A DNA stretch of 64,000 bases from Chloroflexaceae bacterium. Lineage in GTDB: Bacteria; Chloroflexota; Chloroflexia; Chloroflexales; Chloroflexaceae. Of this stretch, positions 3,197-64,000 are shown piece by piece. How positions within the stretch are numbered: position 1 is the first letter of the stretch; the number at the start of each line of letters is the position of its first letter. The notes under the pieces were generated by a model. The model was not told the origin of the DNA. It searched no databases and saw only the letters and a program-made list of their open reading frames with translations. The stretch spans positions 55,107 through 119,106 of the forward strand of contig DAOTUI010000072.1 of NCBI GenBank assembly GCA_034437035.1, written 5' to 3'. The translations under genes were made by a program, and so were the position numbers.

Positions 3197-3659
3197 TTGC
3201 GTACAAAACAGGCTCCCCCGCCGCCTTTCCGAATACTCCCGATTTATGCTGAGACAACCTGCATGGAATGCGGTAGCAGAGTTCGCTAACAAATGGAATG
3301 ATGAAACTGCCAACACCAGGAGAAGAGCGAAAATAATTATTGTATAATAGTCCAGGATATACATAGTCGTCAGACAACCGGATGAGGTTTAATTCCAGCA
3401 GAGTGGAAGAGATTACCATCTTTTGGAAAAACAGAAAAAAAGGAACAGGTTGCCGCAGACAAACGGTGTGGTACATACACTCATCTCCCGATTTGTGTCC
3501 CCACCGTGTATATCCTGTACCGCTTCGATTGCTGTTCTATCACTGTAACTTCAACTTCTGTACCTTCGTATGCGTACCACTCATCAACACCACCGCACGC
3601 TGGGGTCTTCCGCGCGCCATGAAGCACACCTGGCACACAACGAGATAGAGAGGGGCATT

Positions 3660-7661: not shown

Positions 7662-7689
7662 GTAGGGACGCGCTTCCGCGCGTCCCTAC
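7662..7689. terminator. REP-like 12-bp stem hairpin GTAGGGACGCGC-TTCC-GCGCGTCCCTAC between convergent genes
   Basis: Perfect inverted repeat. It overlaps the stop codon of the WD40 gene (7686-7688). The same core recurs at 43.2 kb and 62.3 kb. Confidence 0.6.
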
Positions 7690-8816
7690 ACACCATCACC
7701 CATATGCCAGAGCTTCACCAGCCCATTGCCCAGCGCGGCTGCCAGCGTCTGCCCATCGGGGCTAAACGCGACCCAGGCCGCCGATGAGCCGGGCTCCAGC
7801 GTGAGAAGTGCCTCACCCGTGGCGATCCGCCAGAGCCACAACGTCTCATCCTCCGCGCCGCTCGCCAGTAGCGCACCATCCGGGCTGAAGGCGACCGAGC
7901 GCACCTCGTCCAGATGGCCGGTTAATACCTGCTGCTCCTGGCCGGTTGCCACATCCCAGAGCCGCACCGTGGCATCCTTGGAACCGCTTGCCAGCAGCGA
8001 ACCGTCCGGACTGAAGGTGGTCGGCAGCACCCAGTGCGTATGCCCCTCCAGAATATGTTCCGGCGCACCCTGGACTACATCCCAGAGCCGCACGGTGTAG
8101 TCCAGCGAGCCACTGGAGATCAGCGCCCCGTCCGGGCTCCAGTCCACGCTCTCGACCCAGTTGCTATGGCCGGTGAAGGTCTGGAGTAACGCGGCCTGTG
8201 CGACATCCCAGGTACGGACGGTGTAGTCCTTGGAGCCGCTTGCCAGTTGCGTCCCGTCCGGGTTAAACACCACCCCGGCAACCTCGTCGGTATGGCCGGT
8301 CAGGGTGGCAAGCTCTGCGCCGTCGGGCAGGCTCCAGAGTTTGATCGTTGTGTCAACCGAGCCGGTCGCCAGCATTCGCCCATCCGGGTGAAAGACCACG
8401 GAGCGCACCGCATCGGTGTGGCCCACCAGGGTCATGATCTCCTGGCGGGTTGCCATATCCCACAGTTTCACCGTTGCATCCGCCGAGGCCGAGGCCAGCG
8501 TGTCACCATCGGGGCTGAAGGCCACAGCCCAGAGTCCGCCGGTGTGCCCGCGTAGCGTCGCCAATTCTTCACCGAAGGCATAGGCCGGGGTGGGCGTGGC
8601 GACGGGTGAAGGCGTTGCAGTTGGCGGCAGCGGCGTGGAAGTGACTGCCGGGGTTGGTGTGGCGGCCGGCAGCGGAGTTGCAATGACGGTCGGCGTGGCG
8701 GTAGCCGGTTGGGTAGCCGCGGGCGCTCCGGTGCAACCACTCAGCAGGCTGCTCACGCTGAAGAACAGACCGAGCCGGAGCAACAGGCGGGCCAGACGAG
8801 TGGTTGCGGTCGGCAT
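7686..8816 (-). CDS. WD40-repeat lipoprotein with Pro/Thr/Ala-rich linker
   Basis: ATG at 8816 preceded by GGAGGAGGAG. Lipobox LLSGC. Six to seven GH..V.SV.FSPDG...SGS.D.T..LWD repeats. The ORF-track start at 9017 adds an implausible 67-aa extension. Confidence 0.85.
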   Translation of the reverse strand: MPTATTRLARLLLRLGLFFSVSSLLSGCTGAPAATQPATATPTVIATPLPAATPTPAVTSTPLPPTATPSPVATPTPAYAFGEELATLRGHTGGLWAVAFSPDGDTLASASADATVKLWDMATRQEIMTLVGHTDAVRSVVFHPDGRMLATGSVDTTIKLWSLPDGAELATLTGHTDEVAGVVFNPDGTQLASGSKDYTVRTWDVAQAALLQTFTGHSNWVESVDWSPDGALISSGSLDYTVRLWDVVQGAPEHILEGHTHWVLPTTFSPDGSLLASGSKDATVRLWDVATGQEQQVLTGHLDEVRSVAFSPDGALLASGAEDETLWLWRIATGEALLTLEPGSSAAWVAFSPDGQTLAAALGNGLVKLWHMGDGV

Positions 8817-8994
8817 GGTAGCTCCTCCTCCTGATACCGATTTGTTGTCGTAGCCACAGCGAACACCGAGGACGCAGCGATGATCCACGGGAATGTGCCG
8901 GCGCTGCGCCCGTTGCGCCCATTCCGGCTGATTGCCGGTTTGCCGGCACATTGGTATGAGATGGGTTAGCGCTGTATCAGGATACCATAATAAA

Positions 8995-9088
8995 AAGAAC
9001 AGACAAACATCGAACAAAGAACAAACACAATGTCCAGTAGCGCGTCCCCAGTGCGCTTTGTTTTATGTTTCTTTGTTCTGTGTTCTCG
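8995..9088. repeat. Imperfect low-complexity palindrome (GAACAAAGAAC / GTTCTTTGTTC arms) around a GCGCGTCC-like centre
   Basis: Left arm is aagaacagacaaacatcgaacaaagaacaaacac. Right arm is gttttatgtttctttgttctgtgttctcg. Confidence 0.5.
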
Positions 9089-9530: not shown

Positions 9531-12500
9531 ATGAACAAAAATGGACAGCATGCAGACCAGGTGAACCGGGGCCTGCGGGGTGCCCGGCCTGAACATGCAA
9601 ATTGTGGCGTTGGTATTTTGATGGATTTGTCGGGACACAAGAGCCATCAGATTGTCCGGGATAGCTTGCAGATCCTCAAAAACCTGGACCATCGCGGCGC
9701 GCGCGGGGCCGAAGAAAATACCGGGGATGGTGCCGGTATCCTGCTTCAAAAACCCCACACCTTCTTTCAGGCGCTGATCCCGGCCCTGGGTGACTTCGAC
9801 AGCTATGGCGTAGGCCAGTTCTTCTTTCCCTATGAGGAAGAGGACGGCACAGCGCTGACCCGTTTGATCGAGGCAGTCGTCGCGGAAGAGGGGTTTACGC
9901 TGACGGCCTGGCGCGATGTGCCCACCGATAACAGCGATCTGGGCCGCACCGCGCTGATGTCGGAGCCATGCATACGCCAGCTTTTTGTGCAACCGGCGCA
10001 GCCTATCAGTCCGCAGGAACTGGATACGCGGCTCTATCTGCTCCGCCGCAGTATTGAGAATGCGGTCACCGTGCAAGATCCACCGGGCAGCGATATGTTC
10101 TACATCTGCTCGCTTGACCGCCGCCGCATCGTCTATAAAGGCCTGCTGACCAATGCGCAAGTTGAAACCTACTATCCCGATCTGCTGGACCCGCGTGTTG
10201 AGTCGAGCCTGGCGCTGGTGCATGCGCGCTTCTCCACCAATACGCTCGGTTCCTGGAAGCTGGCCCACCCCTACCGCTGCATTGTCCACAATGGCGAAAT
10301 CAATACCTTCCGGGGCAACTACAACTGGATGCGTACCCGCGAAGCCGACCTGGAGCATCCCCGTTTTGGCAGCGCAATCGACAAGCTGAAGCCGATTACG
10401 CACCCCAGCCAGAGCGATACGGCCATGCTGGACAATGTGCTGGAACTGCTGATCGAGAGTGGCCGTTCGCTGCCGCATACGCTGCGGATGGTCATCCCAG
10501 AAGCCTGGAATAAAGATCCGGTGATGGACTCGGCCAAGCGTGACTGGTACGAATATCACTCGACGCTGATGGAGCCCTGGGATGGACCGGCGCTGGTAGC
10601 GGCCACCGACGGCTACAGCATCGGCGCAATGCTGGACCGGAACGGCTTTCGCCCCTGCCGCTACCTGATCACCCGCGATAACCGGCTGGTGATGGCGAGT
10701 GAAGCCGGGGTGCTGCCAATCGATCCTGCCGATATCCGGGAAAAGGGCCGGCTCAAGCCCGGTCAGATGTTCCTGGCCGATGCCGGCGAGGGCCGCGTGC
10801 TCTCCGATGAAGAGGTCTTCACCCGATTGACCGATCCGAAATATAGCGAGTGGCTGGCACACAATCGCATCCGCCTGAGCGATCTCGTAGCAGCGCAGAC
10901 CGAGCCGGCTCCCGCGCCGGCGATTGCCGACATCACCGCGCTGCAGTGCGCCTTTGGCTATACCCAGGAGTCGCTCACCCGGTTGATCCGGCCGATGGCC
11001 GAGGACGGCAAAGATCCCGTGGGCGCGATGGGCGATGATACGCCGCCCTCGGTGCTCTCAAACCGCACGCGGACGCTCTTTACCTACTTTAAACAATCCT
11101 TTGCGCAGGTTTCTAACCCACCGATTGACTATATTCGTGAGGATTTGATCACGACGCTGGAGAGCTACATCGGCCGCCAGCGCAACCTGCTGGCCGAAAC
11201 GCCGGAGCATTGTCGGCAGCTCTTCCTGCGCTCGCCCATCCTGCGCAATCAGGAACTTGCCATCATCCAGACGATCCAGGCGAAGGGTATTCGGGCGCAG
11301 ACACTGGATATCACCTATGCGCCCGAGACCAGCCTGCAGGAAGCGCTGGCGGAGTTGTGCCGGCAGGCGGTCCAGGCAATCCAGGCGGGCTTCGAGATCG
11401 TGGTGCTGAGTGACCGCGCAACCGGCCCAACACGGCTGCCCATGCCGGCGTTGCTGGCAGTGGCGGGCCTGCACCATCACCTGGTGCGGCAGGGGTTGCG
11501 TACCCACGCCGCGCTGATACTGGAGAGTGGACAACCATGTGCTGTGCATCACTTCTGCACGCTGGTGGGCTATGGCGCGGACGCGATCAATCCCTACCTG
11601 GCCTTTGAGAGCATTAAGCCGATGCTCAACGGGAATACCGACGCCTGGCCCGCCGCGGTTGAGCGCTATATTGCCGCCGTCGAGGATGGCATGTTCAAGG
11701 TGATGTCGAAGATGGGCATTTCGACGCTGGACAGCTACAAGGGCGCGCAGATCTTTGAGGCTATCGGCCTCGATCCCGATTTTATCGCCGAATACTTCAC
11801 CGGCACGGTCTCACAGATCAGCGGGGTGGGGATTGCCGAGATTGAAGCGGATATGCGCGAGAACCATCACCTGGCCTTTGGTGAGCGACTGGACGGCAAT
11901 CTGCGACTGGCGCAGGGTGGCGATTTCTACTGGCGACGCAACGGCGAGTTTCACCAGTGGAACCCGGATACCATCGGCTTTCTGCAACATGCCGGCCGCA
12001 CGGGTGACGCGCGCTTCTACCAGCGCTTTGCCCAGTTGATCAACGAGCAGGAAGAGCAGTTGCAGACCATTCGCGGTCTGGTCGAGTTCCGGATCGATCC
12101 GGACCAGCGCATTCCAATCGAGGAAGTTGAGCCGGTTGAGGCAATCTTCAAGCGCTTCTTCACCGGGGCGATGTCGTTTGGCTCACTGAGTAAGGAGACG
12201 CACGAGTCGCTGGCAATTGCGATGAACCGCATCGGCGGAACCGCCTGCAGCGGCGAGGGGGGCGAGCAGGTTGAGCGCTTCGGCACCGAGCGCGAGTGTC
12301 GCAACAAGCAGGTTGCCAGTGGGCGCTTTGGTGTCACCAGTAACTATCTGGTCAACGCCAAGCATCTGGAGATCAAGGTGGCCCAGGGCGCGAAGCCGGG
12401 CGAAGGCGGGCAGTTGCCGGGCACCAAGGTTAACGAGATTATCGCCGAAGTGCGCTTTACTATCCCCGGCGTGGGGCTGATCTCGCCGCCGCCGCACCAT

Positions 12501-15589: not shown

Positions 15590-15816
15590 AATACCTTTCA
15601 AATAACCGGATCTACGCGGTAGGCGATCAAACCGGACGTTTGACCAGATGTGAGCCAGACTCGCCTGCGGCAGCATGGTACTGTTTTATCTTTTCCACAA
15701 AACATTTTCACAAAGTGAAAATGTTTTGTGGAAAAGGATGGTTTCTTCCGCCCTGCCGGAGGCGCTATCTCCTTCCAGGGGAGTGACCGTGTACCTCGTC
15801 TTATTTGAAAGGTATT
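15590..15816 (-). mobile_element. MITE-like repeat, long form, copy A (reverse core orientation)
   Basis: Outer perfect 16-bp IR AATACCTTTCAAATAA/TTATTTGAAAGGTATT. Core arms are TCGCCTGCGGCAGCATGGTAC and TTCCGCCCTGCCGGAGGCG. Central 22-bp perfect palindrome lies at 15690-15736. Confidence 0.8.
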
Positions 15817-26019: not shown

Positions 26020-26101
<82 letters not shown>

Positions 26102-26543: not shown

Positions 26544-29531
26544 ATGAATACCCCAATACCATTTCAACGTCTCACCCAGGGTATGTGCCTCCTCCTCGGC
26601 CTGGCATTTGCCTGGCTCGTTTTGCATCCTGGTGTCGCGCTGACCGCTCCACCGGCACCCTATCTGGTTAAGGATATTGGTACGACCGCCAGTAACCCAT
26701 CCTGGCTGGTGACAATGAATGGACGGTTGTTCTTCAGCGCCACCGACAATCAGACCGGCATGGAAATCTGGACGAGTGATGGTACCCCGGAGGGAACGTT
26801 CCTCCTGAAGGATATTTCCCCGGGAAGCAGTAGTTCATATCCAACCTCATTAACGGTTATGAACGGACAACTCTTCTTTGCCGCCAGTGATGGGAATAGT
26901 GGGCAGGAGCTATGGGTCAGCGATGGTACCGCAGCCGGAACCCGCCTGCTCAAGGATATCCGTACCGGGGCGGAGAGTTCCTCACCGTATAACCTGACTG
27001 CTGTTGGGAAGCAATTATTTTTTGTAGCATATGAGCCGGTCGCCGGGAAAGAACTCTGGGCTAGTGACGGTACTGCGGCCGGAACTCGCCTGGTTAAGGA
27101 TATTCAACCGGGTGACGGCTGGTCATCCCCGGTATACCTGACTGCGCTCAATAGTGGCCTCTTCTTTAGCGCCGATGATGGTGCCAACGGACGTGAGCTC
27201 TGGTTTAGTAATGGTACACCGGCAGGAACATATCTGGTCCAGGATATCGAACCGGGTACCGGTGGCTCGTTCCCTGATAATCTCGTAGCCGGTGCTGATC
27301 GCCTGTTTTTTGTCGCTACGACGAGTGAAACCGGACGCGAGGTATGGAACAGCGGCGGTTCTACGGTGAACACCCGGCTTATTCGTGACATTAATCCAGG
27401 CAGCAGTAGCTCGCTGGCTAACGATCTGGCAGTTGTCAATAAAGAGCTATTTTTTGGTGCTACCAATGGCAGCACCGGGCGTGAACTCTGGAGAAGTGAC
27501 GGGACATTGGCAGGAACGGCTCTGGTGGGGGATTTGAACCCCGGTGCCGCCGAAGGCAAACCAGACCACCTGACCAACGTCAATGGGCAATTATTTTTCA
27601 CCGCAACAAATGGTCAAACGGGGGAAGAACTCTGGACATTGTCCGGCGGAGAAAAATTTGTTCTAATGAAAGATATTGTACCGGGATCAGACGGTTCGTC
27701 TCCCCGGTATTTAACTGCATTTAACGATACAGTTTTCTTCGCTGCAACTGAACCTACATATGGCACTGAACTTTATCAGAGCAACGGCATGGCAAGTGGC
27801 ACATCCATGGTTGCCGACATCGCCCCCGGCTCACTCTCTTCCAACCCGCGATCACTGACTGTCACCGGGACAACGCTCTTCTTTACTGCCGATAACGGAA
27901 CTACCGGCCGCGAATTGTGGGCCTTGCCGCTATCTGCATATGTACCAACACCGACCAACACGGCAACCAACACGCCAGTACCACCGACGCCAACCAACAC
28001 GGCAACTAATACGCCGACCAATACACCCGTGCCGCCCACACCAACCAATACGGCAACCAACACGCCGGTGCCGCCAACGGCAACGAGCACGCCGAAGATA
28101 GTGCCTACCATAACCGGAAATGTTATTTTCGATAACACCGAGGTACCGCTCTGTCTATATGATCCATCCATCATTCGTGTCGATGGACAGGTCAGTCTCC
28201 AGCCGGTTGATGCAGTGGCACGCCTGCAGGTCTCCTGGGAGATTGTGCATCCTCAGGATCTGCTCACCGGGCCTGTATTTGAGAATTACGGGCTTGTGCG
28301 GGATGGTGACCAGTTTAGTGTGGAAGTCGAGTGGCCGGGAATACGACCAGATGATAAAGTTGTCGAGTTGCATGTAAATGCTTTGCTGCTCGATGCTACA
28401 ACTGGCGATCCCCTCATGTCCGAAGAAACGTCTGTGGCATACTACTGGTATGATTGGTACTGTCCACCGCCAACACCGCGACCGGCAACTGACACGCCAA
28501 CGGATATGCCAACTGAGACCAGCACGCTGACGGCGACCGGTACGCCAACGGATGTGCCGACCATAACCAGTACGCCGACCAGTACGCCAACGGATGTGCC
28601 GACCATAACCAGTACGCCGACCAGTACGCCAACGGATGTGCCGACCATAACCAGTACGCCGACCAGTACATTAACGCCGACCAGTACGCCGACCAGTACA
28701 TTAACGCCGACCAGTACATCAACGCCGACTAATACGCCGACACCAACCAGTACGCCGGATCTCTCGCGTGAACCTGAATTCGCCGCATGCCCGGCTGGTA
28801 TGGATGAAATTGGTACGTTCGACAACTATGTGCGACGGGATAAAGAGCCACGTTCGCATACCTACGATCTGGATCTATCTGAAGATGCCCGTTTGACCGT
28901 TCTGGGATATGCTGAGGAAGGGCATCCCGATGCCTGCCCGGATGGACGGCTTTGTGGGCAGGGACAGATGCATGAAGAATTCCGGGTTAGCATCAATGAT
29001 GCAACGATTGGAGTACATCATGATCGTGGGGCCGTTAATACCTGGATTCCGGTAGGCCCCTGGCAAACATCGTCTGTGGTTTCTGCCGATGATAACGTAG
29101 TTATGGAAGTCTCGCATCTGCTTGGTGGGAGAACGGCCGAGTCGGTTTCCTTCAAGCTAACGGTATGCGCGGAACCGGTTACACCGGGAGACGACGACGA
29201 TGATGACGATGACGGCGGCAATGACGATGACGACCCAACAGTCGTAGCCGAGAAGAAGGTAAGTCCTGTTCTGGAGTGTGTTGTCCACGAGGATGACGGC
29301 ACATACACGGCCTATTTTGGGTATTACAACCCGAATGATATTACGGTCGAGATTGATCGCGGCCGGCATAACCGGTTCACACCCAGACCGCAGGAGCGTG
29401 ATCAACCTGATGTCTTCCAACCAGGGCGTAAGCGGGCTGTCTTCAGTGTGCCCTTTAACGGCAATCACCTGGTCTGGACGCTGAATGGAAAAACGTCAAC
29501 AGCGTCACGCGACTCGCAACGTTGCCGTTGA
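26544..29531 (+). CDS. Large secreted ELWxxDGT-repeat protein with Pro/Thr linkers, uncharacterised C-terminal domains and a poly-Asp tract
   Basis: Signal-like N-terminus. About 13 repeats of G.ELW.SDGT.AGT.L.KDI.PG. PTNTATNTPVPPT and TPTDVPTITSTPTS linkers. DDDDDDDDGGNDDDD tract. GGAG SD. Confidence 0.8.
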   Translation: MNTPIPFQRLTQGMCLLLGLAFAWLVLHPGVALTAPPAPYLVKDIGTTASNPSWLVTMNGRLFFSATDNQTGMEIWTSDGTPEGTFLLKDISPGSSSSYPTSLTVMNGQLFFAASDGNSGQELWVSDGTAAGTRLLKDIRTGAESSSPYNLTAVGKQLFFVAYEPVAGKELWASDGTAAGTRLVKDIQPGDGWSSPVYLTALNSGLFFSADDGANGRELWFSNGTPAGTYLVQDIEPGTGGSFPDNLVAGADRLFFVATTSETGREVWNSGGSTVNTRLIRDINPGSSSSLANDLAVVNKELFFGATNGSTGRELWRSDGTLAGTALVGDLNPGAAEGKPDHLTNVNGQLFFTATNGQTGEELWTLSGGEKFVLMKDIVPGSDGSSPRYLTAFNDTVFFAATEPTYGTELYQSNGMASGTSMVADIAPGSLSSNPRSLTVTGTTLFFTADNGTTGRELWALPLSAYVPTPTNTATNTPVPPTPTNTATNTPTNTPVPPTPTNTATNTPVPPTATSTPKIVPTITGNVIFDNTEVPLCLYDPSIIRVDGQVSLQPVDAVARLQVSWEIVHPQDLLTGPVFENYGLVRDGDQFSVEVEWPGIRPDDKVVELHVNALLLDATTGDPLMSEETSVAYYWYDWYCPPPTPRPATDTPTDMPTETSTLTATGTPTDVPTITSTPTSTPTDVPTITSTPTSTPTDVPTITSTPTSTLTPTSTPTSTLTPTSTSTPTNTPTPTSTPDLSREPEFAACPAGMDEIGTFDNYVRRDKEPRSHTYDLDLSEDARLTVLGYAEEGHPDACPDGRLCGQGQMHEEFRVSINDATIGVHHDRGAVNTWIPVGPWQTSSVVSADDNVVMEVSHLLGGRTAESVSFKLTVCAEPVTPGDDDDDDDDGGNDDDDPTVVAEKKVSPVLECVVHEDDGTYTAYFGYYNPNDITVEIDRGRHNRFTPRPQERDQPDVFQPGRKRAVFSVPFNGNHLVWTLNGKTSTASRDSQRCR
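28542..28727 (+). repeat. In-frame perfect tandem repeats inside the ELW gene (3 x 42 bp, then 2 x 30 bp)
   Basis: acgccaacggatgtgccgaccataaccagtacgccgaccagt x3 (TPTDVPTITSTPTS). Then acattaacgccgaccagtacgccgaccagt x2. Confidence 0.8.
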
Positions 29532-34282: not shown

Positions 34283-34318
34283 CACAAATGGCCTCGGCAA
34301 TTGCCGAGGCCATTTGTG
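34283..34318. repeat. Perfect 34-36 nt palindrome (CACAAATGGCCTCGGCAA|TTGCCGAGGCCATTTGTG)
   Basis: Read directly. It has no flanking T-run on either strand. It lies between the hypothetical gene start and the tandem array. Confidence 0.7.
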
Positions 34319-34433
34319 TACTGTCTTTGTCGCCAGCTAACGCATCGCGTAGCAACGTACTGGTCTTTTGACTAAAATTTGTGCGTTGGATTCTTTAAAG
34401 CATACCGTAGGTTTTGTGCTGTGACGATGACTG

Positions 34434-34889
34434 AATGTCGTGTTGTAACGCTAGTACGATGTCGTGTTGTAATGTCGTGTTGTAACGCTAGTACGATGTC
34501 GTGCTGTAATGTCGTGTTGTGCTGTTGTGCTGTGACGCTGGTACGATGTCGTGCTGTGCTGTTGTGCTGTGACGCTGATACGTTGTCGTGCTGTGCTGTT
34601 GTGCTGTGACGCTGATACGTTGTCATGCTGTGCTGTCGTGTTGTGACGTCGTGCTGTGATACTGGTACGATGTCGTGCTGTAATGTCGTGTTGTGATGTC
34701 GTGCTGTGATACTGGTACGATGTCGTGCTGTAATGTCGTGTTGTGATGTCGTGCTGTAATGTCGTGTTGTGATGTCGTGCTGTAATGTCGTGTTGTGATG
34801 TCGTGCTGTGATACTGGTACGATGTCGTGTTGTGACACTGGTACGATGTCGTGTTGTGATGCCTGCTGTGACGCTCCTACGACACGTTA
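34434..34889. repeat. Compound tandem array: about 24 units of 13 bp (ATGTCGTGYTGTR) punctuated by about 9 units of 11 bp (AYRCTRGTACG)
   Basis: Manual parsing of the run. The plus strand is G+T rich. All minus-strand frames are open, which produces spurious ORFs such as 34372-34899. Confidence 0.85.
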
Positions 34890-35177
34890 CAAGAACCAAA
34901 TACTTCTGGCGTTTGACAGTTCTCGCTCCGGGGAGAGTTCGTTATTGTTGTTGTGCGATGTCCCGTTGCATCTATAGGATAGCATGCCGGTCCTTCTGGT
35001 TCAATGAGGCATGGGTCTTGAGCGGAGTACACCACAGGTACCATGACCATGCTGACCATAAGTACCAGGGTAAAGTTACAGGTTGTTCATCGTTATAGCT
35101 CAACACTGAGGGCAATGCCCCCGGCGCAAGTGAACAGTTTATCACATTTATCCTGCAAGGCACGCCTGCAACCGGCG

Positions 35178-36051: not shown

Positions 36052-36268
36052 CAGGACGTACGCGGTGTGCGTGCAAACGGACCGTTTGCTCTCGATAACG
36101 GCGTATTTCGCCTGCGGCAGCATGGTACGTTTTTGTCTTTTTCCGAAACATGTGGCTCTCCGAGCCACATGTTTCGGAAAAAGACTGTCCCATTCCACCC
36201 TGCCGGAGGCGCATCGGGCCAGTTGTCCAGGCAGACGCCTGGGTTGGGAACCAACCGCGTAACTCCTG
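36052..36268 (-). mobile_element. MITE-like repeat copy B1 with perfect 7-bp TSD TCAATAA
   Basis: TIRs CAGGACGTACGCGGT / ACCGCGTAACTCCTG. TSD at 36045-36051 and 36269-36275. Central 24-bp perfect palindrome at 36135-36185. Confidence 0.9.
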
Positions 36269-36276
36269 TCAATAAT

Positions 36277-36450
36277 ACACGTTACGGGGTCACTGACCCG
36301 ACAGGAGATTCCGCCTCCGACAGGGCAGAAGAAATCATCTTTTTTCACAAAAATTTTGTAAAAAAAGATCAAAAGTACCATGCTGCCGCAGGCGAATCGG
36401 GCTTTTGGTTGGTCAACAGACCGAAATAAGGCTGCACCGTGTAACGCGTG
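36277..36450 (+). mobile_element. MITE-like repeat copy B2 (shortened, degenerate central palindrome)
   Basis: Arms TTCCGCCTCCGACAGGGCAGAAG and GTACCATGCTGCCGCAGGCGAA. The central stem is reduced to about 14 bp with 1 mismatch. Confidence 0.7.
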
Positions 36451-36457
36451 GAAATAC

Positions 36458-36527
36458 CAGGACGTACGCGGTGGATGGTCAAACCGGACGTTTGACCAGA
36501 TGGAAGCCAGACTCGCCTGCGGCAGCA
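36458..36527 (-). mobile_element. Half MITE copy B3 (one TIR, CAAAC hairpin and one arm), abutting the pfkB-family stop codon
   Basis: CAGGACGTACGCGGTGGATGGTCAAACCGGACGTTTGACCAGATGGAAGCCAGACTCGCCTGCGGCAGCA is near-identical to the left part of copy A, then the match stops. Confidence 0.65.
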
Positions 36528-44777: not shown

Positions 44778-45125
44778 GGACCACGAACGACGCGAAACGA
44801 ACGAAACCCACGAAACGACAAGTGCCGACCGGAGCGCTGCCCTGCGTCTCGCGTCATTCGCGGGTTTTCGTGCCGTTCGTGGTCCAAAACTCTCCCCAGT
44901 CATCACTCCCTCGTTGCCAGCCCCCATCATAGCAGCGTAGTCCCAGTGAAAGCAGCGCAGCACAACGGGCCATTCGTGTATTCGTGGTCAGCATTCGTGG
45001 ACGGTTCTCCCACCGCACCGGTTCCCAATCGCCAATCCCCCCGCGCCAGCCTCATTCGTGCATTCGTGGTCCGCATTCGTGGACGGTTCTCCCACCACCC
45101 CAGTCCCCAATCCCCACTCCCTAGC
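44778..45125. repeat. Cluster built from TTCGTGG/CCACGAA motifs: imperfect palindrome of about 110 bp plus an 82-bp tandem duplication
   Basis: Palindrome arms at 44778-44819 and 44853-44885. Direct repeats CATTCGTGYATTCGTGGTCMGCATTCGTGGACGGTTCTCCCACC at 44971 and 45053. Confidence 0.65.
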
Positions 45126-50800: not shown

Positions 50801-50954
50801 CTAAGACATGGTTCAGAATCAGCGTTTCTTACTTGACAGTCTGAACGATCTCGGGTTGTCAGAAAAAACCTTCTGGCGCATCAGGAAGGGATTAGTAAGC
50901 ATTTTCATTATGTTAACTGTCAAGTAGGATTGAACCATGTCTTAGGGGCAATAC
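50801..50954. repeat. IR-bounded 154-bp module (15-bp perfect ends CTAAGACATGGTTCA/TGAACCATGTCTTAG plus inner IR TACTTGACAGT/ACTGTCAAGTA)
   Basis: Read directly. It abuts MITE copy C1 and has no coding capacity. Confidence 0.65.
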
Positions 50955-50958
50955 CTTT

Positions 50959-51165
50959 CAAATAACCGGGCTTCCGTGGTTCCTTACCTGGAAGAGGATA
51001 TCGCCTCCGGCAGGATGGAAGAAACCATCCTTTTTTCACAAAGTGGAAATTTTTTGTGAAAAAAGATAAAAATGTACCATGCTGCCGCAGGCGAAACCGT
51101 TCTGTAGCGGAGCAAACGTCCGGTTTGCACTGCTACTACGCAGGTTCTGCTCTTTGAAAGGTATT
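50959..51165 (+). mobile_element. MITE-like repeat, long form, copy C1 (forward core)
   Basis: Outer ends AATACCTTTCAAATAA / CTCTTTGAAAGGTATT. Arms ATCGCCTCCGGCAGGATGGAAG and GTACCATGCTGCCGCAGGCGAA. The central stem is 13 bp. Confidence 0.85.
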
Positions 51166-51227: not shown

Positions 51228-51424
51228 CACAAGTTACGCTGTCACGAACCTGAAAGGACATTTTGCCTCCGGCAGGGCGGAAGGCTCCTGTCTTTGTTCA
51301 CAAAACATTTGCACTCTGTGCAAATGTTTTGTGAACAAAGATACAAAAGTACCATGCTGCCGCAGGCGAATCTGACTTCCATCTGATCAAACATCCGATT
51401 TGTCCACCCACCGCGTAACGCGTG
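51228..51424 (+). mobile_element. MITE-like repeat copy C2
   Basis: TIRs CACAAGTTACGCTGT / ACCGCGTAACGCGTG. Central 24-bp perfect palindrome at 51291-51341. Both conserved arms are present. Confidence 0.85.
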
Positions 51425-54231: not shown

Positions 54232-54852
54232 ATGACTACCTACACCGAACAACAGGCGTGTACTCCAATCGCCCTGAATGTGAAGAACCTCAACCAGAAC
54301 GCGGTACTCCCCTATGGCATGCAAGTTGACCATGTCTTTTCGGCAATGACCGATTTCCTTGACTTCCTGGGATTTGTGAATAACCAGTTGCACAGCAAAG
54401 GGCTAACGCGCCTGGAGTCAATGCTCATGCCTGCAAATTTTAGCAGTATTGTCGGCGAGTTTATGACAGTGACAATTCCCAAACACTGCGCCAGTATTAC
54501 GCGAAACAAATACCATAACGGCCATCCTGATCTGATACCGGCAGGAATGTTTCCCAACAACGAGGTACAACATTCGACTACTGGCATAGAGGTCAAAGCG
54601 TCGCGTTATTCACGCGGCTGGCAAGGACATAATCCGGAGGATATCTGGTTGATGGTCTTTGTGTTCGATAGTAACCGCGCCCGGGATACGCAACCCAGAC
54701 CATTCAAGTTTGTGAAGGTGGTAGGTGCGCAACTGGCAAAAAGCGACTGGCTTTTCTCAGGTAGGTCGGCACAGAGTCGCCGTACCATTACCGCCAGTGT
54801 TACCAATACCGGCTATCAAAAGATGATGGCGAACTGGCTCTACAAAGCCTGA
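54232..54852 (+). CDS. Candidate type II restriction endonuclease (PD-(D/E)xK)
   Basis: HPD-x20-IEVK fits PD...(D/E)xK. It is convergent with, and 13 bp 3'-overlapping, a DNA methyltransferase gene. No other family motif recognised. Confidence 0.55.
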   Translation: MTTYTEQQACTPIALNVKNLNQNAVLPYGMQVDHVFSAMTDFLDFLGFVNNQLHSKGLTRLESMLMPANFSSIVGEFMTVTIPKHCASITRNKYHNGHPDLIPAGMFPNNEVQHSTTGIEVKASRYSRGWQGHNPEDIWLMVFVFDSNRARDTQPRPFKFVKVVGAQLAKSDWLFSGRSAQSRRTITASVTNTGYQKMMANWLYKA

Positions 54853-55805
54853 ACTTCTACCAGATCCAGCAGATTCAACTGCCCAACCTCCGCTTCCGGC
54901 CGTAGATCGGCCAGCCGTGGTATGGCCTGCTGACTCAATTCAAAATAATCCCGGAACCGCTCGATGCCGATGCAGGCCAGACCCTGCGCTTCGGCGGCAG
55001 CAACAGTTGAGCCGGAACCCATAAACGGATCGAGGATCAGCCCCGTCCCCAACGGCAGTGCGGCCCGAACAACCTGACGCAGGAAGGATTGTGGTTTCAA
55101 ACTGGGATGATCAGCAATATCCCGCTCTCGCCGGGGCGTCCGCTCGCTAACAATAACATCGCTGAAGGGCTGCTCCGCACTGATCCGCCGCAGGCCACCC
55201 GTGCCATAGGTGCGCAGACAATCGCTGACCTTCATCCCCGGTGGTAGCGGCTTGCGGAAGATTCCCCAGGGCTCATAACAGCCGCGTGGCAACGAGCAGA
55301 CCTCGGAGAATTCATCTTCGGCGTTTTTGGGCCGGTCGCCGCCCCGCAGTGTCCGCACCAGGCGGATCAACTCGCCCCGAAACTCTAACCCACCCTCAAC
55401 CAGTGCTGCGAACAGCAGTTGCGACAGGAAGGCATTACTGGCAATACACACATGACCGCCGGGAAGCAGTGCCCGCACCGCTAACCTGCTCCACTCATAA
55501 AAAAACCGCTGGAGCAGTGCCCGCTCTTTCAGTGTGAGTGCCGTAAAGCGTGGAAGCGGTGCCCGGTTGCTCCCATCAAAGGAAGGTGGAATGCGCCAGA
55601 TGCCGCCCTGACCACTGGCCCGCTTCGCCATCTGCTCAAAGTCATACTCCTTCACGCCATAGGGCGGATCGGTGACAATGGCGTGAAGACTATCTCCCGG
55701 AATACGGCTCATCCACTCAAAACAGTCAGCATGTAGCACCAGCGAAGTACGGAACTGCACTGACTGATAATCCAGTGCCAAAGCAGCAGGTTCGGTAGCA
55801 GACAT
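54840..55805 (-). CDS. Beta-class DNA methyltransferase (DPPY, probably N6-adenine; N4-cytosine not excluded)
   Basis: Motif IV TDPPYGV lies near the N-terminus and motif I LDPFMGSGST near the C-terminus (beta permutation). Confidence 0.85.
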   Translation of the reverse strand: MSATEPAALALDYQSVQFRTSLVLHADCFEWMSRIPGDSLHAIVTDPPYGVKEYDFEQMAKRASGQGGIWRIPPSFDGSNRAPLPRFTALTLKERALLQRFFYEWSRLAVRALLPGGHVCIASNAFLSQLLFAALVEGGLEFRGELIRLVRTLRGGDRPKNAEDEFSEVCSLPRGCYEPWGIFRKPLPPGMKVSDCLRTYGTGGLRRISAEQPFSDVIVSERTPRRERDIADHPSLKPQSFLRQVVRAALPLGTGLILDPFMGSGSTVAAAEAQGLACIGIERFRDYFELSQQAIPRLADLRPEAEVGQLNLLDLVEVQAL

Positions 55806-55807
55806 GG

Positions 55808-56053
55808 CTAGATTTCCTCAATTGACTCACCCAGCGCATAGACCGGGCTTAACTCGCGCAAGATCTTTTCCAACTTCTGCCGATCAGCCGCATCACCCGC
55901 CAGGATGTTCTCGAAGTCAGCCACGCTGAGGATTATAGCCTGAGGGGTATTCCGGCGGCGAACAATATAACGCGTGTTGTTCTGAACCACATCATCAAGC
56001 ACCCGCCCAAAGTTATTCTGGGCCTCGGTTGAAGCAATCAGTTTGGTTCCCAT
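55808..56053 (-). CDS. Phd/YefM-family antitoxin-like protein, translationally coupled to the methyltransferase
   Basis: STEAQNNFGRVLDDV...YIVRRRNTPQAIILSVADFENI matches the Phd/YefM N-terminal fold pattern. Stop TAG at 55808-55810 lies 2 nt from the methyltransferase ATG, with a GAGGAAA SD inside its 3' end. Confidence 0.8.
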   Translation of the reverse strand: MGTKLIASTEAQNNFGRVLDDVVQNNTRYIVRRRNTPQAIILSVADFENILAGDAADRQKLEKILRELSPVYALGESIEEI

Positions 56054-56074
56054 AGTTACCCGAAATGACTATAG

Positions 56075-56111
56075 TAGCTAATTTGAATAAGTGGATTGTA
56101 TAGCTAATTTG
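56075..56111. promoter_or_regulatory. Two direct TAGCTAATTTG repeats (26-bp spacing) upstream of the phd-like gene
   Basis: Copies at 56075-56085 and 56101-56111. TAGCTA is itself palindromic. Confidence 0.35.
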
Positions 56112-56166
56112 TGTGACTGTCAAGCGAGAAAAAGTAGCCTGGGGCTAAGAGGGAATTACGCTTTAA

Positions 56167-56361
56167 CAGGACTTACGCAGTTCTCCATCTGGAGATGTAT
56201 TTCGCCTCCGGCAGGGCGGAACAGACCACCTTTTTCACAACATTTTTGCACAATGTGCAAAAATGTTGTGAAAAAAGATCAAAACGTACCACGCTGCCGC
56301 AGGCGAATCGGGCTTTCATCCGGTCAAACGTCCCGTTTGCATGTCAACTGCATAAGTCCTG
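56167..56361 (+). mobile_element. MITE-like repeat copy D with perfect 7-bp TSD GCTTTAA
   Basis: TIRs CAGGACTTACGCAGT / ACTGCATAAGTCCTG. TSD at 56160-56166 and 56362-56368. The central perfect palindrome lies within 56230-56276. Confidence 0.92.
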
Positions 56362-56487
56362 GCTTTAAGGTGTGATCCGGATGGGGAGGGCAGTTCTCAA
56401 GCTGTACACCCCCAAATCTCGGTGCTCTCGGTGTTCTCGGTGGCGCAAAAGACCGCAGACGGCGGTGCTCTCCGTAACCCTCTGTCG

Positions 56488-57195
56488 CTAAACCGAACCA
56501 ACTTTGCGCGCCCGCACAACGAGAAACCAGGGGTTGCGCATGACGCGCTCGTACAGGTCGGGCGCTACCCGCTGAAAATCGGCGGTAGGCTGCGGCTCCA
56601 GCAGGCGCTCGATCACAAAGCCGGCCGCAGCCGGCGCCTCACTGATAGCCGTTAACGGTCGCCGGTAGAACTGCACCGTTCCAATAGCCTCCCAGGTATC
56701 CTCCAGCAGGGTCAGGGCGAAGTAATCGCCGGTCTGAAACATCTGCCAGTCCATGCAGGGGTGATGGGTGGAGAAAACCAGCACGCCCTGGGGCCGCAGC
56801 ACACGCGCGAACTCGCACAACGTCGGTTGCCAGTCTTGCAGGTAGTGCAGCACCAGGGAGCAGACAATCGTATCGAACGCGCCGGCGGCGGCAAAGTCCA
56901 GCGGGCGGGTCAGGTCGGCCTGCCGCACCGTCGCGCGCCCCCCCACATGCTGCCGGGTCAACGCCACAAATTCGGCGTTCAGATCGCAGGCCGTGACCGT
57001 CGCTCCCTGATCGAGCAGATACTCCGCATACCAACCGGACCCGCAACCGACATCCAGCACCCGGTTCTGCGCCAGGGAGGGGAGCAGCGACAGAACGGCG
57101 GGCCGTTCATAAAAGGCATTCATCGGGTTGGTATCAACCTGTCGGGCATACTGCCCGGCGATCCCCTGGTAGCTTGCGCCGGTATGCTCAGGCAT
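56488..57195 (-). CDS. Class I SAM-dependent methyltransferase
   Basis: VLDVGCGSGWYAEYL motif I and DTIVCSLVLHY motif. Confidence 0.8.
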   Translation of the reverse strand: MPEHTGASYQGIAGQYARQVDTNPMNAFYERPAVLSLLPSLAQNRVLDVGCGSGWYAEYLLDQGATVTACDLNAEFVALTRQHVGGRATVRQADLTRPLDFAAAGAFDTIVCSLVLHYLQDWQPTLCEFARVLRPQGVLVFSTHHPCMDWQMFQTGDYFALTLLEDTWEAIGTVQFYRRPLTAISEAPAAAGFVIERLLEPQPTADFQRVAPDLYERVMRNPWFLVVRARKVGSV

Positions 57196-57207: not shown

Positions 57208-57280
57208 CTGTGCTGTCGCAGGCGATTCTGCCGTTCACCGGGTAAAATGCCCGGTTTGATGAACGACCGCGTAAGTCGTG
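57208..57280 (+). mobile_element. Half MITE copy (3' arm, CAAAC-type hairpin, right TIR only)
   Basis: GCTGTCGCAGGCGATT...ACCGGGTAAAATGCCCGGT...ACCGCGTAAGTCGTG lies between the two methyltransferase genes. Confidence 0.6.
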
Positions 57281-57288
57281 TCTTTGAG

Positions 57289-58709: not shown

Positions 58710-58905
58710 CAGGAGTTACGCGGTCACGAACCCAAAAGGACATTTCGCCTCCGGCAGGGCGGAAGAAACCACTCTTTTTCACAAGATTTTTGCACTTAGT
58801 GCAAAAATCTTGTGAAAAAGAAGGAAAAGTACCACGCTGCCGCAGGCGAAATCCGCCGTTATCGGGAACAAAGGACCCGTTTGAACGCGCACTGCGTAAG
58901 TCCTG
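58710..58905 (+). mobile_element. MITE-like repeat copy E with perfect 7-bp TSD TCAATCA
   Basis: TIRs CAGGAGTTACGCGGT / ACTGCGTAAGTCCTG. TSD at 58703-58709 and 58906-58912. Central 22-bp perfect palindrome at 58774-58820. Confidence 0.92.
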
Positions 58906-61917: not shown

Positions 61918-62107
61918 CACGACGTACGCAGTGGGTGCTCAAACCAGAGGTTTTATCCCGGTAGCACAATGCATTCTGCCTGCGGCAGCATGGTACTCTT
62001 TTTCACAAAAATTTGCTCACGGAGCAAATTTTTGTGAAAAAGATCTGGGTTCTTCCGCCCTGCCGGAGGCGAGATCCGCTTTCAAACGCGTGACTGCGTA
62101 ACGCCTG
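61918..62107 (-). mobile_element. MITE-like repeat copy F (reverse core)
   Basis: TIRs CACGACGTACGCAGT / ACTGCGTAACGCCTG. Central 21-bp perfect palindrome at 61998-62042. Flanks TTATGTA/TTTTTTA may be a decayed TSD. Confidence 0.85.
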
Positions 62108-62350: not shown

Positions 62351-62392
62351 TACCATTGCATTCCATCCAAAAACCCTGCCGCCTGCACAACA

Positions 62393-63079
62393 TCAATATT
62401 CAGGCAGGGCGTGCTGAAGCTGCCCCAGATCGAGAATGCGCACGCACGCCCGCTCCACTTGAATCAACCCCTGATCGCGCAGATTGGCAAGCACCCGGTT
62501 AACCGTCTCGCGCGTCGTTCCCGACAGGCTGGCAAGATCATCCTGGGTCAGATGCAACTCGATACTGGTTGCGCCGCCGTTTGTGACGCCATAGCGGGCC
62601 GCCAGGTTGAGCAGTTGATGCACTACCCGCTGTGGGGCGGTGTAGTTTGCCAGATGCCCGGCGTAGGTGTTGCTACTGCGCAGGCGGGCTGCCAGCGTCT
62701 CCAGAATGGCGATGGCAATCGCGGGATGCTCCGTGACGATTGGCACAAAATCGGTGCGGTGCAGCGTCAGCGTTCGGGTTGGCACCATCGCCTCGGCACT
62801 GGCCGAACGTGGCTGGTTATCCAGCAGCGCCAACTCACCGAAGAAATCCCCGGTGCGAAAAATTGTCACCGACAACTCCTGCCCGGTTTCACCGCTGGTG
62901 TAGATGCGCACCTGACCATTTGCAATAATGTAGAGCACACTGCCAGGACTCCCCTGGTGAAAAATCGTTTCGCCCCGCTTGAAGGTCGCATTTCCCAGGC
63001 GTGCAGCCAGCAGATCAAGCTGATCATCGCTGAGACGCGAGAAGGGAGCGACACTCCGCAGCAGTTTTTGTTTATTCAT
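62393..63079 (-). CDS. Crp/Fnr-family transcriptional regulator (cNMP-binding plus HTH)
   Basis: GDFFGELALL cNMP-binding motif and C-terminal TRETVNRVLANLRDQGLI HTH. Confidence 0.85.
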   Translation of the reverse strand: MNKQKLLRSVAPFSRLSDDQLDLLAARLGNATFKRGETIFHQGSPGSVLYIIANGQVRIYTSGETGQELSVTIFRTGDFFGELALLDNQPRSASAEAMVPTRTLTLHRTDFVPIVTEHPAIAIAILETLAARLRSSNTYAGHLANYTAPQRVVHQLLNLAARYGVTNGGATSIELHLTQDDLASLSGTTRETVNRVLANLRDQGLIQVERACVRILDLGQLQHALPEY

Positions 63080-63301
63080 TGCGCGCCTCCTGGCTGACCA
63101 CTGAGATATTTCTAGTATAGAACGCTTTTGCGCAGCGCACTATGATCGCTGTCACGCATTGTGATAATCGGCTCAGGAAATACAACCAGCGACGGTTGGC
63201 GGGCAGCCCGACCGTCGCAACCGATGCGTTGCGCACTACCCGCAGAACTATCATACCAGGGAAGGCTTACCAAAATGATGCATGCGGTTACGATCAGGTG
63301 A

Positions 63302-63318
63302 TACGACGTACGCGGTGG
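63302..63318. repeat. Solo MITE terminal repeat (TACGACGTACGCGGTGG)
   Basis: Matches the TIR of copies B1/B3. It is followed by CGAA-rich simple sequence, not by the element core. Confidence 0.4.
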
Positions 63319-63374
63319 GATCCGGATCACGAATAACGCGAAATAAGCGAAAAGCGCGAAACTGCTGGTGCTGA

Positions 63375-63569
63375 CATGCGTTACACGAGCCTATGTTCAA
63401 TGGGGAATGGCGCCTCTAGCCGGACCGAAGAAACCCGCTTTTTCACAAAAATGTTGCACTTTATGCAACATTTTTGTGAAAAAAGATCAAAATGTACCAC
63501 GCTGCCGCAGGCCAAGACTGCCTTTGTGGATGTACATGTCTGATTTGTATGCCCATTGCGTAACTCGTA
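63375..63569 (+). mobile_element. MITE-like repeat copy G (5' arm decayed)
   Basis: Central 20-bp perfect palindrome at 63439-63483. The 3' arm GTACCACGCTGCCGCAGGCCAA is present. TIRs are degenerate (CATGCGTTACACGAG / ATTGCGTAACTCGTA). Confidence 0.75.
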
Positions 63570-63660
63570 TATGTGAAACAGCAGAGCGCGTTGAAGAGGG
63601 AAAATTCTCCAGGGGATGTTGCCGGTAAGGACGTGCGGCTGCGCGTCCGCCTCATTTTGG

Positions 63661-63711
63661 CAGGAGTTACCTGGTACGGTCTGTTCCGTCCTGATGACCG
63701 CGTAACTCCGG
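63661..63711. mobile_element. Mini-derivative consisting of the two TIRs only (internal deletion)
   Basis: CAGGAGTTACCTGGT ... ACCGCGTAACTCCGG are separated by 21 bp. A further TIR fragment GTAACTTGTGTGA follows. Confidence 0.45.
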
Positions 63712-63812
63712 TAACTTGTGTGACAGTAAAATGGATAAAGAAAAGAAATACAACCAGGAAAAACCTGCACAGAGCACGAGCAAGGTCTTCCTGGTTGTAG
63801 AGGTGCAGACTG

Positions 63813-64000
63813 CTAGAGCGGGCTTTCGGCGACCCGGCCGCTGTGGTTGCGTGGTGCAGAGTAGACCGCTTCGCCGTCGCCTTCCGGTTCGCTGTAGGTG
63901 TTGGCAACCAGATCTTCGCCCAGGGCAATCTGGTTTGAGGTGGCAACGGACCAGGCCATTGTCGCATCAAGCAGATTTTCGATCAGGGGCACCCAGGCTT
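63813..64000 (-). CDS. 3' end of an unidentified gene running off the window
   Basis: Minus-strand frame is open from the window edge to TAG (63813-63815). Translation reads ...AWVPLIENLLDATMAWSVATSNQIALGEDLVANTYSEPEGDGEAVYSAPRNHSGRVAESPL. Codon usage matches neighbouring genes. It is absent from the ORF track because the start lies outside the window. Confidence 0.5.
   Translation of the reverse strand, partial: AWVPLIENLLDATMAWSVATSNQIALGEDLVANTYSEPEGDGEAVYSAPRNHSGRVAESPL

Follow-up and report, generated by a model that had tools for sequence, protein, structure and literature searches.

The 64,000-nucleotide stretch analysed here (the window; contig DAOTUI010000072.1 of a Chloroflexaceae bacterium, positions 55,107 to 119,106) carries many copies of a short repeat, one of which, copy D (window positions 56167 to 56361), was the starting point of this study. 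Judging from its small size, the absence of coding capacity, its terminal inverted repeats (TIRs), a target-site duplication (TSD) of fixed length and its copy number, the repeat is very probably a MITE (miniature inverted-repeat transposable element), a non-coding mobile element of Chloroflexales. In its centre lies a palindrome, the sequence of which changes from copy to copy in such a way that a change in one arm is mirrored in the other. This mirrored variation is best explained by an already known mutational process. Homogenisation of the central inverted repeat at the DNA level, templated by its own hairpin, is probably the main cause (probability approximately 0.65).

Read from 5' to 3', copy D consists of a TIR, a small variable hairpin, an outer arm, about 8 unpaired nucleotides and the palindrome, followed by about 10 unpaired nucleotides, the partner outer arm, a second small hairpin and the other TIR:

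56160 to 56166, no strand: left TSD of copy D, GCTTTAA; the same 7-mer is repeated at 56362-56368
56167 to 56361, plus strand: copy D, whole MITE of 195 bp; nhmmer match to the full model, E 9e-51
56167 to 56181, plus strand: left TIR of copy D, CAGGACTTACGCAGT; family consensus CASGAGTTACGCGGT
56182 to 56195, plus strand: small left-arm hairpin, TCTCC ATC(T) GGAGA; variable and weakly structured across copies
56202 to 56222, plus strand: left outer arm, TCGCCTCCGGCAGGGCGGAAC; pairs imperfectly with the right outer arm, with conserved mismatches
56231 to 56275, no strand: central perfect palindrome of copy D; arms of 22 nt, centre A56253
56286 to 56306, plus strand: right outer arm, GTACCACGCTGCCGCAGGCGA; includes the 19-mer used for retrieval of the family
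56325 to 56339, plus strand: small right-arm hairpin, CAAACG TCC CGTTTG, obtained by folding
56347 to 56361, plus strand: right TIR of copy D, ACTGCATAAGTCCTG; pairs as inverted end with the left TIR
56362 to 56368, no strand: right TSD of copy D, GCTTTAA; identical to the left TSD

The two arms of the palindrome (56231-56252 and 56254-56275) are 100% complementary over 22 nt each, with A56253 as the sole unpaired base between them. C56230 and A56276 are unpaired, since the right side carries six A compared to five T on the left. The outer 9-10 bp are conserved among copies and the inner part is variable. As single-stranded DNA, the whole of copy D folds into one long hairpin (-54.3 kcal/mol, z -10.4). 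Structure within the side arms is weak (folding z only -0.5 to -1.1). The right arm (e.g. window 56313-56339; columns 163-187 of alignment A1) contains a small hairpin around a conserved (C/G)AAACG, the stem of which seemingly covaries among copies (CCAGG/CCTGG, CGGG/CCCG, TCGG/CCGA, CGGTC/GACCG), with shifts in register and a z of -0.8. Because of these register shifts between copies, the apparently compensated side-arm stems were left out of the counts.

Seven hairpins of this kind had been reported in a preliminary description of the window, and all of them (in copies A, B1, C2, D, E, F and G, listed further below) were found within 1-2 nt of the reported positions. The conserved boundary CTTTTTCACAA...TTGTGAAAAAG around the palindrome is common to copy D and all seven hairpins. 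Their stems are 20-24 bp long and their loops 1-5 nt. The perfect stem of 20-24 bp that had been ascribed to every full copy is present in these seven, but not in two further full copies, B2 (16 bp with one mismatch) and C1 (15 bp with two mismatches), the palindromes of which are short and imperfect. A loop size of 3-5 nt had been given earlier; the loop of copy D is a single base. The account of the variation itself was borne out in all seven hairpins: the inner half of the stem varies and every difference is mirrored on the other arm, including the single C/G change that distinguishes copy D from copy E.

For a larger copy set, one genome per species was scanned for the conserved 19-mer GTACCAYGCTGCCGCAGGC, which yielded at least 74 loci, and a metagenome scan with the same motif added at least 120 further stretches. 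All loci listed from the genome scan are located in Chloroflexales or Chloroflexota metagenome-assembled genomes (MAGs); the sources among these matches include Chloroflexaceae F7_114, bin.95, Kouleothrix STL-CHL26, Roseiflexaceae SMAG_U9509, SZAS-1 and L.E.CH.5. These sources share nothing but the repeats with the window, and none of them is the genome from which it derives. Two 19-mer matches in another Chloroflexota MAG (L058 and L060) carry no element and were left out. The resulting copy set (n = 259) comprises the copies from the window and the matches listed that had enough upstream sequence to be scored. A stem of at least 15 bp was present in 227 of the 259 copies (179 perfect, 31 with one mismatch, 17 with more), and only 72 of the 4846 pairs in these 227 stems (1.5%) were mismatched. 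Stem length ranged from 15 to 34 bp, with unequal arms in only a handful of copies. The set contains 220 distinct left arms, and the GC content of the stems extends from 18% to 77%. Copies from Kouleothrix and Roseiflexaceae, as well as many metagenome and soil copies, have stems without any sequence resemblance to those of the window (e.g. TGTGTTTCGTTTTTGCGCTC TAC GAGCGCAAAAACGAAACACA). The outer arms and TIRs of these copies are the same, and the unrelated stems occupy an unchanged place with respect to them, just upstream of the 19-mer. The palindrome is missing in approximately 7% of the copies, with junctions between short direct repeats (GGAAGAT...GAAAAAGAT), which points to slippage across the hairpin. 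Palindrome-less derivatives with the same junction were found at unrelated loci (L008 and L042; L025 and L063). Two different palindromes are arranged in tandem in L057 (1830-2065) and L073 (reverse, 1660-1898), and such an arrangement was also seen in L004 and L046.

Across the 259 copies, the two arms of one copy differ at 0.25 of the 12 positions nearest to the loop, whereas arms of different copies differ at 6.9 of 12. When 36 copies were aligned with MAFFT, both sides had changed in 13 of the 18 central pairs (80 cells), with hardly any changes on one side only. The adjacent outer stem did not follow this pattern; none of its 14 pairs showed a both-sided change, and only one-sided changes and conserved mismatches were present. 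The values observed for the central stem were reached in 0 of 500 shuffles. Structures slid by 1-3 columns paired in 36-50% of the cells, compared to 98% in the real structure. The left outer arm deviates from the consensus at 9.3% of its positions, from which approximately 18.6% mismatched pairs would be expected under independent drift, an upper estimate given that subfamilies inherit some flank variants (copy G and L021 both carry CCTCTAG); 1.7% were observed. The preliminary description had named many unpaired substitutions in a larger set as a result that would refute its claim; with 1.5-1.7% mismatched pairs against this expectation, the claim stands.

Comparison of closely related copies gave the same picture. 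In 31 non-overlapping nearest-neighbour pairs, chosen by flank identity, 189 differences were mirrored and 13 were not; some of the 189 go back to mirrored indels, by which the register is displaced. When only the nine closest usable pairs were considered, with flanks at least 81% identical, the differences numbered 13 mirrored and 4 unpaired. This corresponds to approximately 6.6% mirrored change per stem position compared to about 12% divergence of the flanks, i.e. roughly half the flank rate. As this is about half of the single-site rate and too fast for two independent hits, a mirrored change appears to arise in one step. Indels are mirrored as well: two copies carry T5/A5 at positions where a third, related copy has T4/A4.

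The mismatches and loops point to a process acting on DNA. Among the 72 mismatches, G·T (23) and A·C (20) were found in similar numbers, with 29 of other types, so that no excess of wobble pairs was detected; one-sided wobble states are also nearly absent from the central stem in the 36-copy alignment. Many stem changes are transversions (A-T to T-A or C-G) and have no wobble intermediate. The loops belong to a few classes, each of which is found in both orientations at a ratio of approximately 1:1 (AAA/TTT 13:9, GGA/TCC 7:12, GTA/TAC 9:10, ACA/TGT 10:8, AAC/GTT 8:9 and GCA/TGC 8:8). This balance is informative because the asymmetric flanks define the orientation of the element. Inversion of the loop in situ was observed directly between orthologous copies. 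In the MAGs L057 and L073 (approximately 97% identical over 506 bp including the neighbouring gene), both loops of the tandem palindromes are flipped (AAA/TTT and TTT/AAA), and the stems are unchanged. Furthermore, one copy shared by L021 and L192 (99.5% identical over 2957 bp) differs only by a flip of the loop from ACA to TGT and by one adjacent base. An assembly artefact is an unlikely cause of these flips, since assemblers work with k-mers longer than these arms of 20-24 bp.

In the proposed mechanism, the central inverted repeat of 18-26 bp, with a loop of usually 3 nt, would form a fold-back structure in the DNA while it is replicated or repaired. One step, either a template switch of the polymerase or recombination between the arms with correction of mismatches, would then erase a mutation in one arm or copy it to the other. 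The expected outcome would be mirrored substitutions and indels in a freely drifting sequence with perfect arms. The same process would flip the loop, and replication slippage across the hairpin would delete the palindrome now and then. According to published work, the arms of short imperfect inverted repeats become homogenised, and the spacer inverted, when the polymerase switches template between them (PMC8604942), and template switching can yield compensatory changes and perfect stems in one event (PMC8794818). Template switching fits the data, as these published signatures, homogenisation of the arms and inversion of the spacer, are those found in the MITE hairpins. The Ripley model of quasipalindrome mutation by template switching predicts both one-step mirrored changes and loop inversion. 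Quasipalindrome mutation has been studied in E. coli and yeast, and template switching in RNA genes has reportedly been studied by Mönttinen and Löytynoja. The literature on template switching deals mostly with single events or reporter genes, whereas repeated action on hundreds of dispersed copies is proposed here.

Several points weigh against hairpin-templated homogenisation as a complete explanation. Only four orthologous hairpins were available, and among them no mirrored substitution was found in situ; three of the four show loop flips, and one of these three also has an unpaired change beside its loop. It is inferred that homogenisation of the arms and mirrored substitutions result from the same process as the loop flips. 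Plain inversion of the segment would merely shift a mismatch to the other arm and not remove it, so that homogenisation should need asymmetric switching or mismatch repair. In addition, the paralogous copies are not independent of each other, and the drift expectation given above is too high to the extent that flank variants are inherited. The hairpin is kept in approximately 88% of the copies, across lineages with unrelated stems. This retention despite demonstrable deletion argues for added selection for the hairpin. Moreover, the loop-proximal C-N-C/G-N-G and, in the subfamily of the window, the outer CTTTTTCAC are conserved beyond pure drift. Homogenisation alone leaves the retention of the hairpin and these conserved parts unexplained. 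An additional role of the DNA hairpin in cis in propagating the element is plausible on top of homogenisation and compatible with all data.

Selection on the hairpin or symmetric site, or else homogenisation of the arms, had been offered as the two alternatives in the preliminary description. Homogenisation is favoured by the lack of a wobble excess, by random and flipped loops, by mirrored indels and by the ratio of 189 mirrored to 13 other differences; of the forms of selection considered, RNA structure and a dimeric protein site are disfavoured, and a DNA hairpin or cruciform acting in cis carries more weight. According to the latter reading, which is possible but rather unlikely as the principal cause, the hairpin or cruciform is a signal required for transposition, and the mirrored changes are compensatory evolution among master copies. 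The hairpin might nucleate extrusion so that the terminal repeats meet, or it might be recognised by its shape, only masters with an intact stem being able to proliferate. The constant place of the hairpin just upstream of the 19-mer in 227 of 259 copies, with stems unrelated across lineages, is in line with this, as are the relative conservation of the outer 9 bp and of the loop-closing C-N-C and the long hairpin formed by the whole element on folding (z -10.4). With decay of the flank motif, the mismatch frequency goes up from 1.0% to 4.1%, suggesting that copies are born perfect and then age, with flank decay as a clock that is confounded by variants inherited within subfamilies. On the other hand, a two-hit route via an impaired intermediate should be far slower than the mirrored changes observed at about half the flank rate, and mirrored indels as well as in-situ loop flips need a templated DNA event anyway. 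The palindrome-less derivatives sharing a junction at unrelated loci may still move, which would speak against a required signal, but the same picture would result from repeated slippage at one and the same microhomology. A cis signal can coexist with homogenisation. It is conceivable, albeit with similarly low probability, that the hairpin is an obligatory cis element recognised by shape in a large undescribed MITE superfamily of Chloroflexota, its structure being kept by template switching during replication while the sequence drifts freely. If true, an essential signal of a non-coding mobile element would be maintained by a mutational mechanism and not by ordinary purifying selection.

A selected RNA structure (small RNA, transcript stabiliser or terminator) with classical compensatory substitutions is improbable. 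Covariation is strong by the usual criteria, and intergenic repeats such as ERIC and REP act on mRNA stability. However, selection on one RNA strand would tolerate G·U, which is at odds with the similar numbers of G·T and A·C mismatches and with the scarcity of one-sided wobble states. Loop sequence and orientation are random relative to the asymmetric flanks, and the copies are found in both orientations and in convergent, divergent and tandem gene contexts. No Rfam family matches the element at gathering or E-value thresholds: with Rfam 15, the only match in the window above the gathering threshold was a tRNA (26025-26098), and copy D hit miRNA-precursor models only (17-31 bits compared to cut-offs of 60-100). 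On neither strand is the stem followed by a T-tract, the runs of T and of A being within the stem. An intrinsic terminator was considered and rejected, as the stems of the window are A+T-rich and the T-run before the stem and the A-run after it are paired with each other; a terminator and promoter scan of 55800-56700 did not call the central palindrome. Even less probable is a binding site of a dimeric sequence-specific protein, be it a regulator or a transposase. The two-fold symmetry of the palindrome and the outer half-sites TTTTTCACAAA / TTTGTGAAAAA, conserved in the window subfamily, would suit such a site, but the inner 10-12 bp vary among copies, at about 7 of 12 positions, and the variants from Kouleothrix, Roseiflexaceae and soil share no stem sequence at all, their GC content spanning the whole range given above. 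A protein site would also have no need of mirrored indels or of an uninterrupted run of 20 or more perfect pairs. The lowest probability was assigned to a REPIN-like or attC-like substrate of single-stranded DNA that would be mobilised by an integron integrase or a RAYT/Y1 transposase, its stem being kept by selection on the folded strand. The architecture is alike, with conserved outer parts including conserved mismatches and a variable paired centre, copies stand after almost every gene in the 51-64 kb part of the window, and compensatory changes are common in REPIN hairpins (PMC3116915). The family, in contrast, has TIRs and 7-bp TSDs, mixed orientations, no GTAG or CGTC tag at the stem bases and no RYYYAAC...GTTRRRY cores in the order of attC, and neither an integrase nor a Y1 gene was found among the ten flanking genes scanned. 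REPINs, relatives of IS200/IS605 and attC cassettes are not known to produce such TIRs and TSDs.

The identification as a MITE rests on the ends of the element and its distribution; in the preliminary description of the hairpins, the repeat had not been recognised as a transposable element with TIRs and TSDs. The TIRs are 15 bp long (consensus CASGAGTTACGCGGT ... ACCGCGTAACTCSTG), and homology drops sharply at the CAS...STG ends. A perfect TSD of 7 bp was present in 23 of 72 full-length copies and a match of 6/7 in 12 more, i.e. 35 of 72 with at least 6/7. As a control, left and right flanks taken from different copies were combined, which gave 0.6% perfect matches and 4.7% at 6/7. The duplicated target has the AT-rich and palindromic consensus TNANTNA. 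This TSD and target pattern points to mobilisation in trans by a staggered-cutting transposase of the DDE type. A 7-bp TSD together with CAG/CAC termini is not known to point clearly to a single insertion-sequence family, and no assignment was made. The elements fall into length classes of approximately 160, 190, 215 and 265 bp, all without coding capacity, and the family model gave 194 matches in 95 sequences. In Chloroflexales MAGs and metagenome contigs, they appear to form a new, hitherto undescribed MITE family.

Differences between related contigs are consistent with mobility. A cluster of four copies in L110 is flanked by a duplication of TCATTTCA; at the corresponding site in L068, TCATTTCA is followed by the first 10 nt of the terminal repeat only; this is the footprint of a deletion. 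Synteny with window 62357-64000 (88-93% identity) is seen in contig L147, which has 115 unrelated bp where copy G stands. Contig L075, 92-94% identical to the window, does not contain the fragment at 57211-57282, but its spacer is diverged, and synteny stops at the stop codon next to copy D. The exact junction of copy D with its flank had no match in the metagenomes. Two negative results limit the evidence for mobility. A clean empty site was not found in these comparisons, L068 having a footprint and L147 its unrelated sequence. Nor was an autonomous element with matching ends found in about 1 Mb of retrieved loci, which were searched for inverted TIR pairs 700-3500 bp apart and for ORFs (open reading frames) next to solitary ends; only ordinary genes were obtained. 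Assemblies of MAGs and metagenomes often lose insertion sequences. An ORF fragment with an N-terminal YPSDVTDEQWAAIEPLIP motif is located between two MITE copies in L008 (4030-4515, minus strand); it is IS5-like by eye and was rejected as a partner, as it is not bounded by the MITE ends.

The family shares many properties with known bacterial MITEs (non-autonomous derivatives of DDE insertion sequences such as Correia/NEMIS, ERIC, RUP and the cyanobacterial Nezha), which are likewise short, non-coding and intergenic with many dispersed copies, and also have TIRs, a TSD of fixed length, subfamilies of different length, tandem or nested insertions and a fold into a long hairpin. It differs from them by the perfect but sequence-variable central palindrome of 18-26 bp with a flipping loop found throughout the family, and by a parent insertion sequence that was not found. 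To our knowledge, no MITE family with a palindrome of this description has been reported, and none was found in literature searches either. REPINs are also miniature, hairpin-forming and intergenic mobile DNA with conserved flanks and a compensated spacer; they differ by the lack of such TIRs and of TSDs, by tagged REP motifs and by their dependence on a Y1 transposase. The attC sites of integrons are imperfect palindromes between genes as well, with conserved outer parts, unpaired bases and a variable paired centre. The MITE ends, however, read GTTACGC...GCGTAAC, which is the opposite order with the wrong bases, and the mixed orientation, the TSDs and the absence of an integrase among the ten flanking genes scanned set the element apart from attC. 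In large palindromes, such as those of ampliconic regions on sex chromosomes, the arms also evolve in concert, through gene conversion between them, and stay identical while lineages diverge. Those palindromes comprise kilobases to megabases instead of 20 bp and are governed by homologous recombination, in contrast to the likely template switching during replication in the MITE.

In total, the window harbors nine full copies and four fragments of the MITE. Twelve of these were detected in both orientations by a profile search with the family model, and a relic consisting of TIRs only was added by eye. Apart from copy D they are:

3416 to 3517, plus strand: weak right-half relic (E 2e-6 and 2e-5)
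15606 to 15800, minus strand: copy A, hairpin 15690-15736; extended inverted ends AATACCTTTCAAATA at 15590-15602 and 15804-15816
36052 to 36268, minus strand: copy B1, 217-bp class with longer left arm, hairpin 36135-36185
36276 to 36450, plus strand: copy B2, palindrome at approximately 36337-36369 (16 bp with 1 mismatch)
36458 to 36527, minus strand: right-half-only fragment, model positions 126-195
50966 to 51148, plus strand: copy C1, degenerate palindrome at approximately 51030-51065 (15 bp with 2 mismatches); ends of the extended type (50950-50962, 51153-51165)
51228 to 51424, plus strand: copy C2, hairpin 51291-51341
57211 to 57282, plus strand: right-half-only fragment, missing from the related contig L075
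58710 to 58905, plus strand: copy E, hairpin 58773-58821, TSD TCAATCA
61918 to 62107, minus strand: copy F, hairpin at approximately 61998-62042
63302 to 63568, plus strand: copy G, 267-bp class with long left arm, hairpin 63439-63483; missing from the syntenic contig L147
63661 to 63711, no strand: 51-bp relic, two inverted terminal repeats separated by 20 nt; also in L147 (approximately 11075-11125)

The relic at 63661-63711 is an old internal deletion of a MITE copy, as it occupies the same site in L147. All copies in the window are intergenic on the ORF map, the only ORFs overlapping them being artefacts with low GC at third codon positions (GC3). The proteins encoded by the ten neighbouring genes scanned are ordinary (among them HisRS, FAD synthetase, methyltransferases, MarR, a DEAD-box helicase and a DNA methylase), and these ten genes include no transposase. 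The DNA methylase gene (N6_N4_Mtase, 54840-55805, minus strand) is located immediately upstream of copy D and adjoins an ORF of 206 amino acids without Pfam match (54232-54852, plus strand); together they may represent a restriction-modification pair (54232-55805). The extra inverted AATACCTTTCAAATA at the ends characterises a subfamily that includes copies A and C1. In three metagenome contigs (L110 11565-11982, L141 8439-8856 and L191 726-1144), the extended element is found inside a larger repeat (approximately 420 bp) that has inverted ends of its own (AGAGACTGTCTGAAA...) and is flanked on either side by a GGTCATGGGGC repeat, an arrangement which is a nested or composite element.

Several other repeats are present in the window. 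A dense and complex tandem-repeat block (34421-34861) is composed of units GATGTCGTG(C/T)TGT(A/G)A(T/C)G at spacings of 8, 13, 21 and 37 nt and is overlain by a low-GC3 ORF (34372-34899, minus strand), probably not a real gene. Just upstream of it, a perfect 36-bp palindrome without spacer (CACAAATGGCCTCGGCAA/TTGCCGAGGCCATTTGTG, 34283-34318) was found, which is unrelated to the MITE. Long runs of coding repeats of 12, 18, 39 and 42 nt (ACGCCGACCAGT-type, 27945-28757) are located in a low-GC3 ORF of 995 amino acids (26544-29531, plus strand), the product of which is probably a repetitive, secreted or surface protein. The ORF at 7686-9017 (minus strand) contains five copies of a 62-nt segment (7825-8516) spaced by exactly 126 nt, corresponding to 42 codons; this is a protein-domain repeat of 42 residues. 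Finally, two CATTCGTG-rich direct repeats of 69 nt (88% identical, 82 nt apart) are found at 44971-45121 among short low-GC3 ORFs.

The elements are abundant in Chloroflexales (MAGs of Kouleothrix, Roseiflexaceae and Chloroflexaceae) and in metagenome contigs with the same motif, and their annotation would remove spurious ORFs and explain breaks in assemblies. The 13 covarying pairs out of 18 call for caution in covariation tests, since such a result would usually count as proof that an RNA is functional, whereas a mutational cause at the DNA level is indicated here. In this family, a single short inverted repeat is available in hundreds of natural replicates. Homogenisation of the arms, inversion of the loop, mirrored indels and deletion by slippage can be read from genomes, which makes the family suited for measuring template-switch mutation outside of laboratory reporters.

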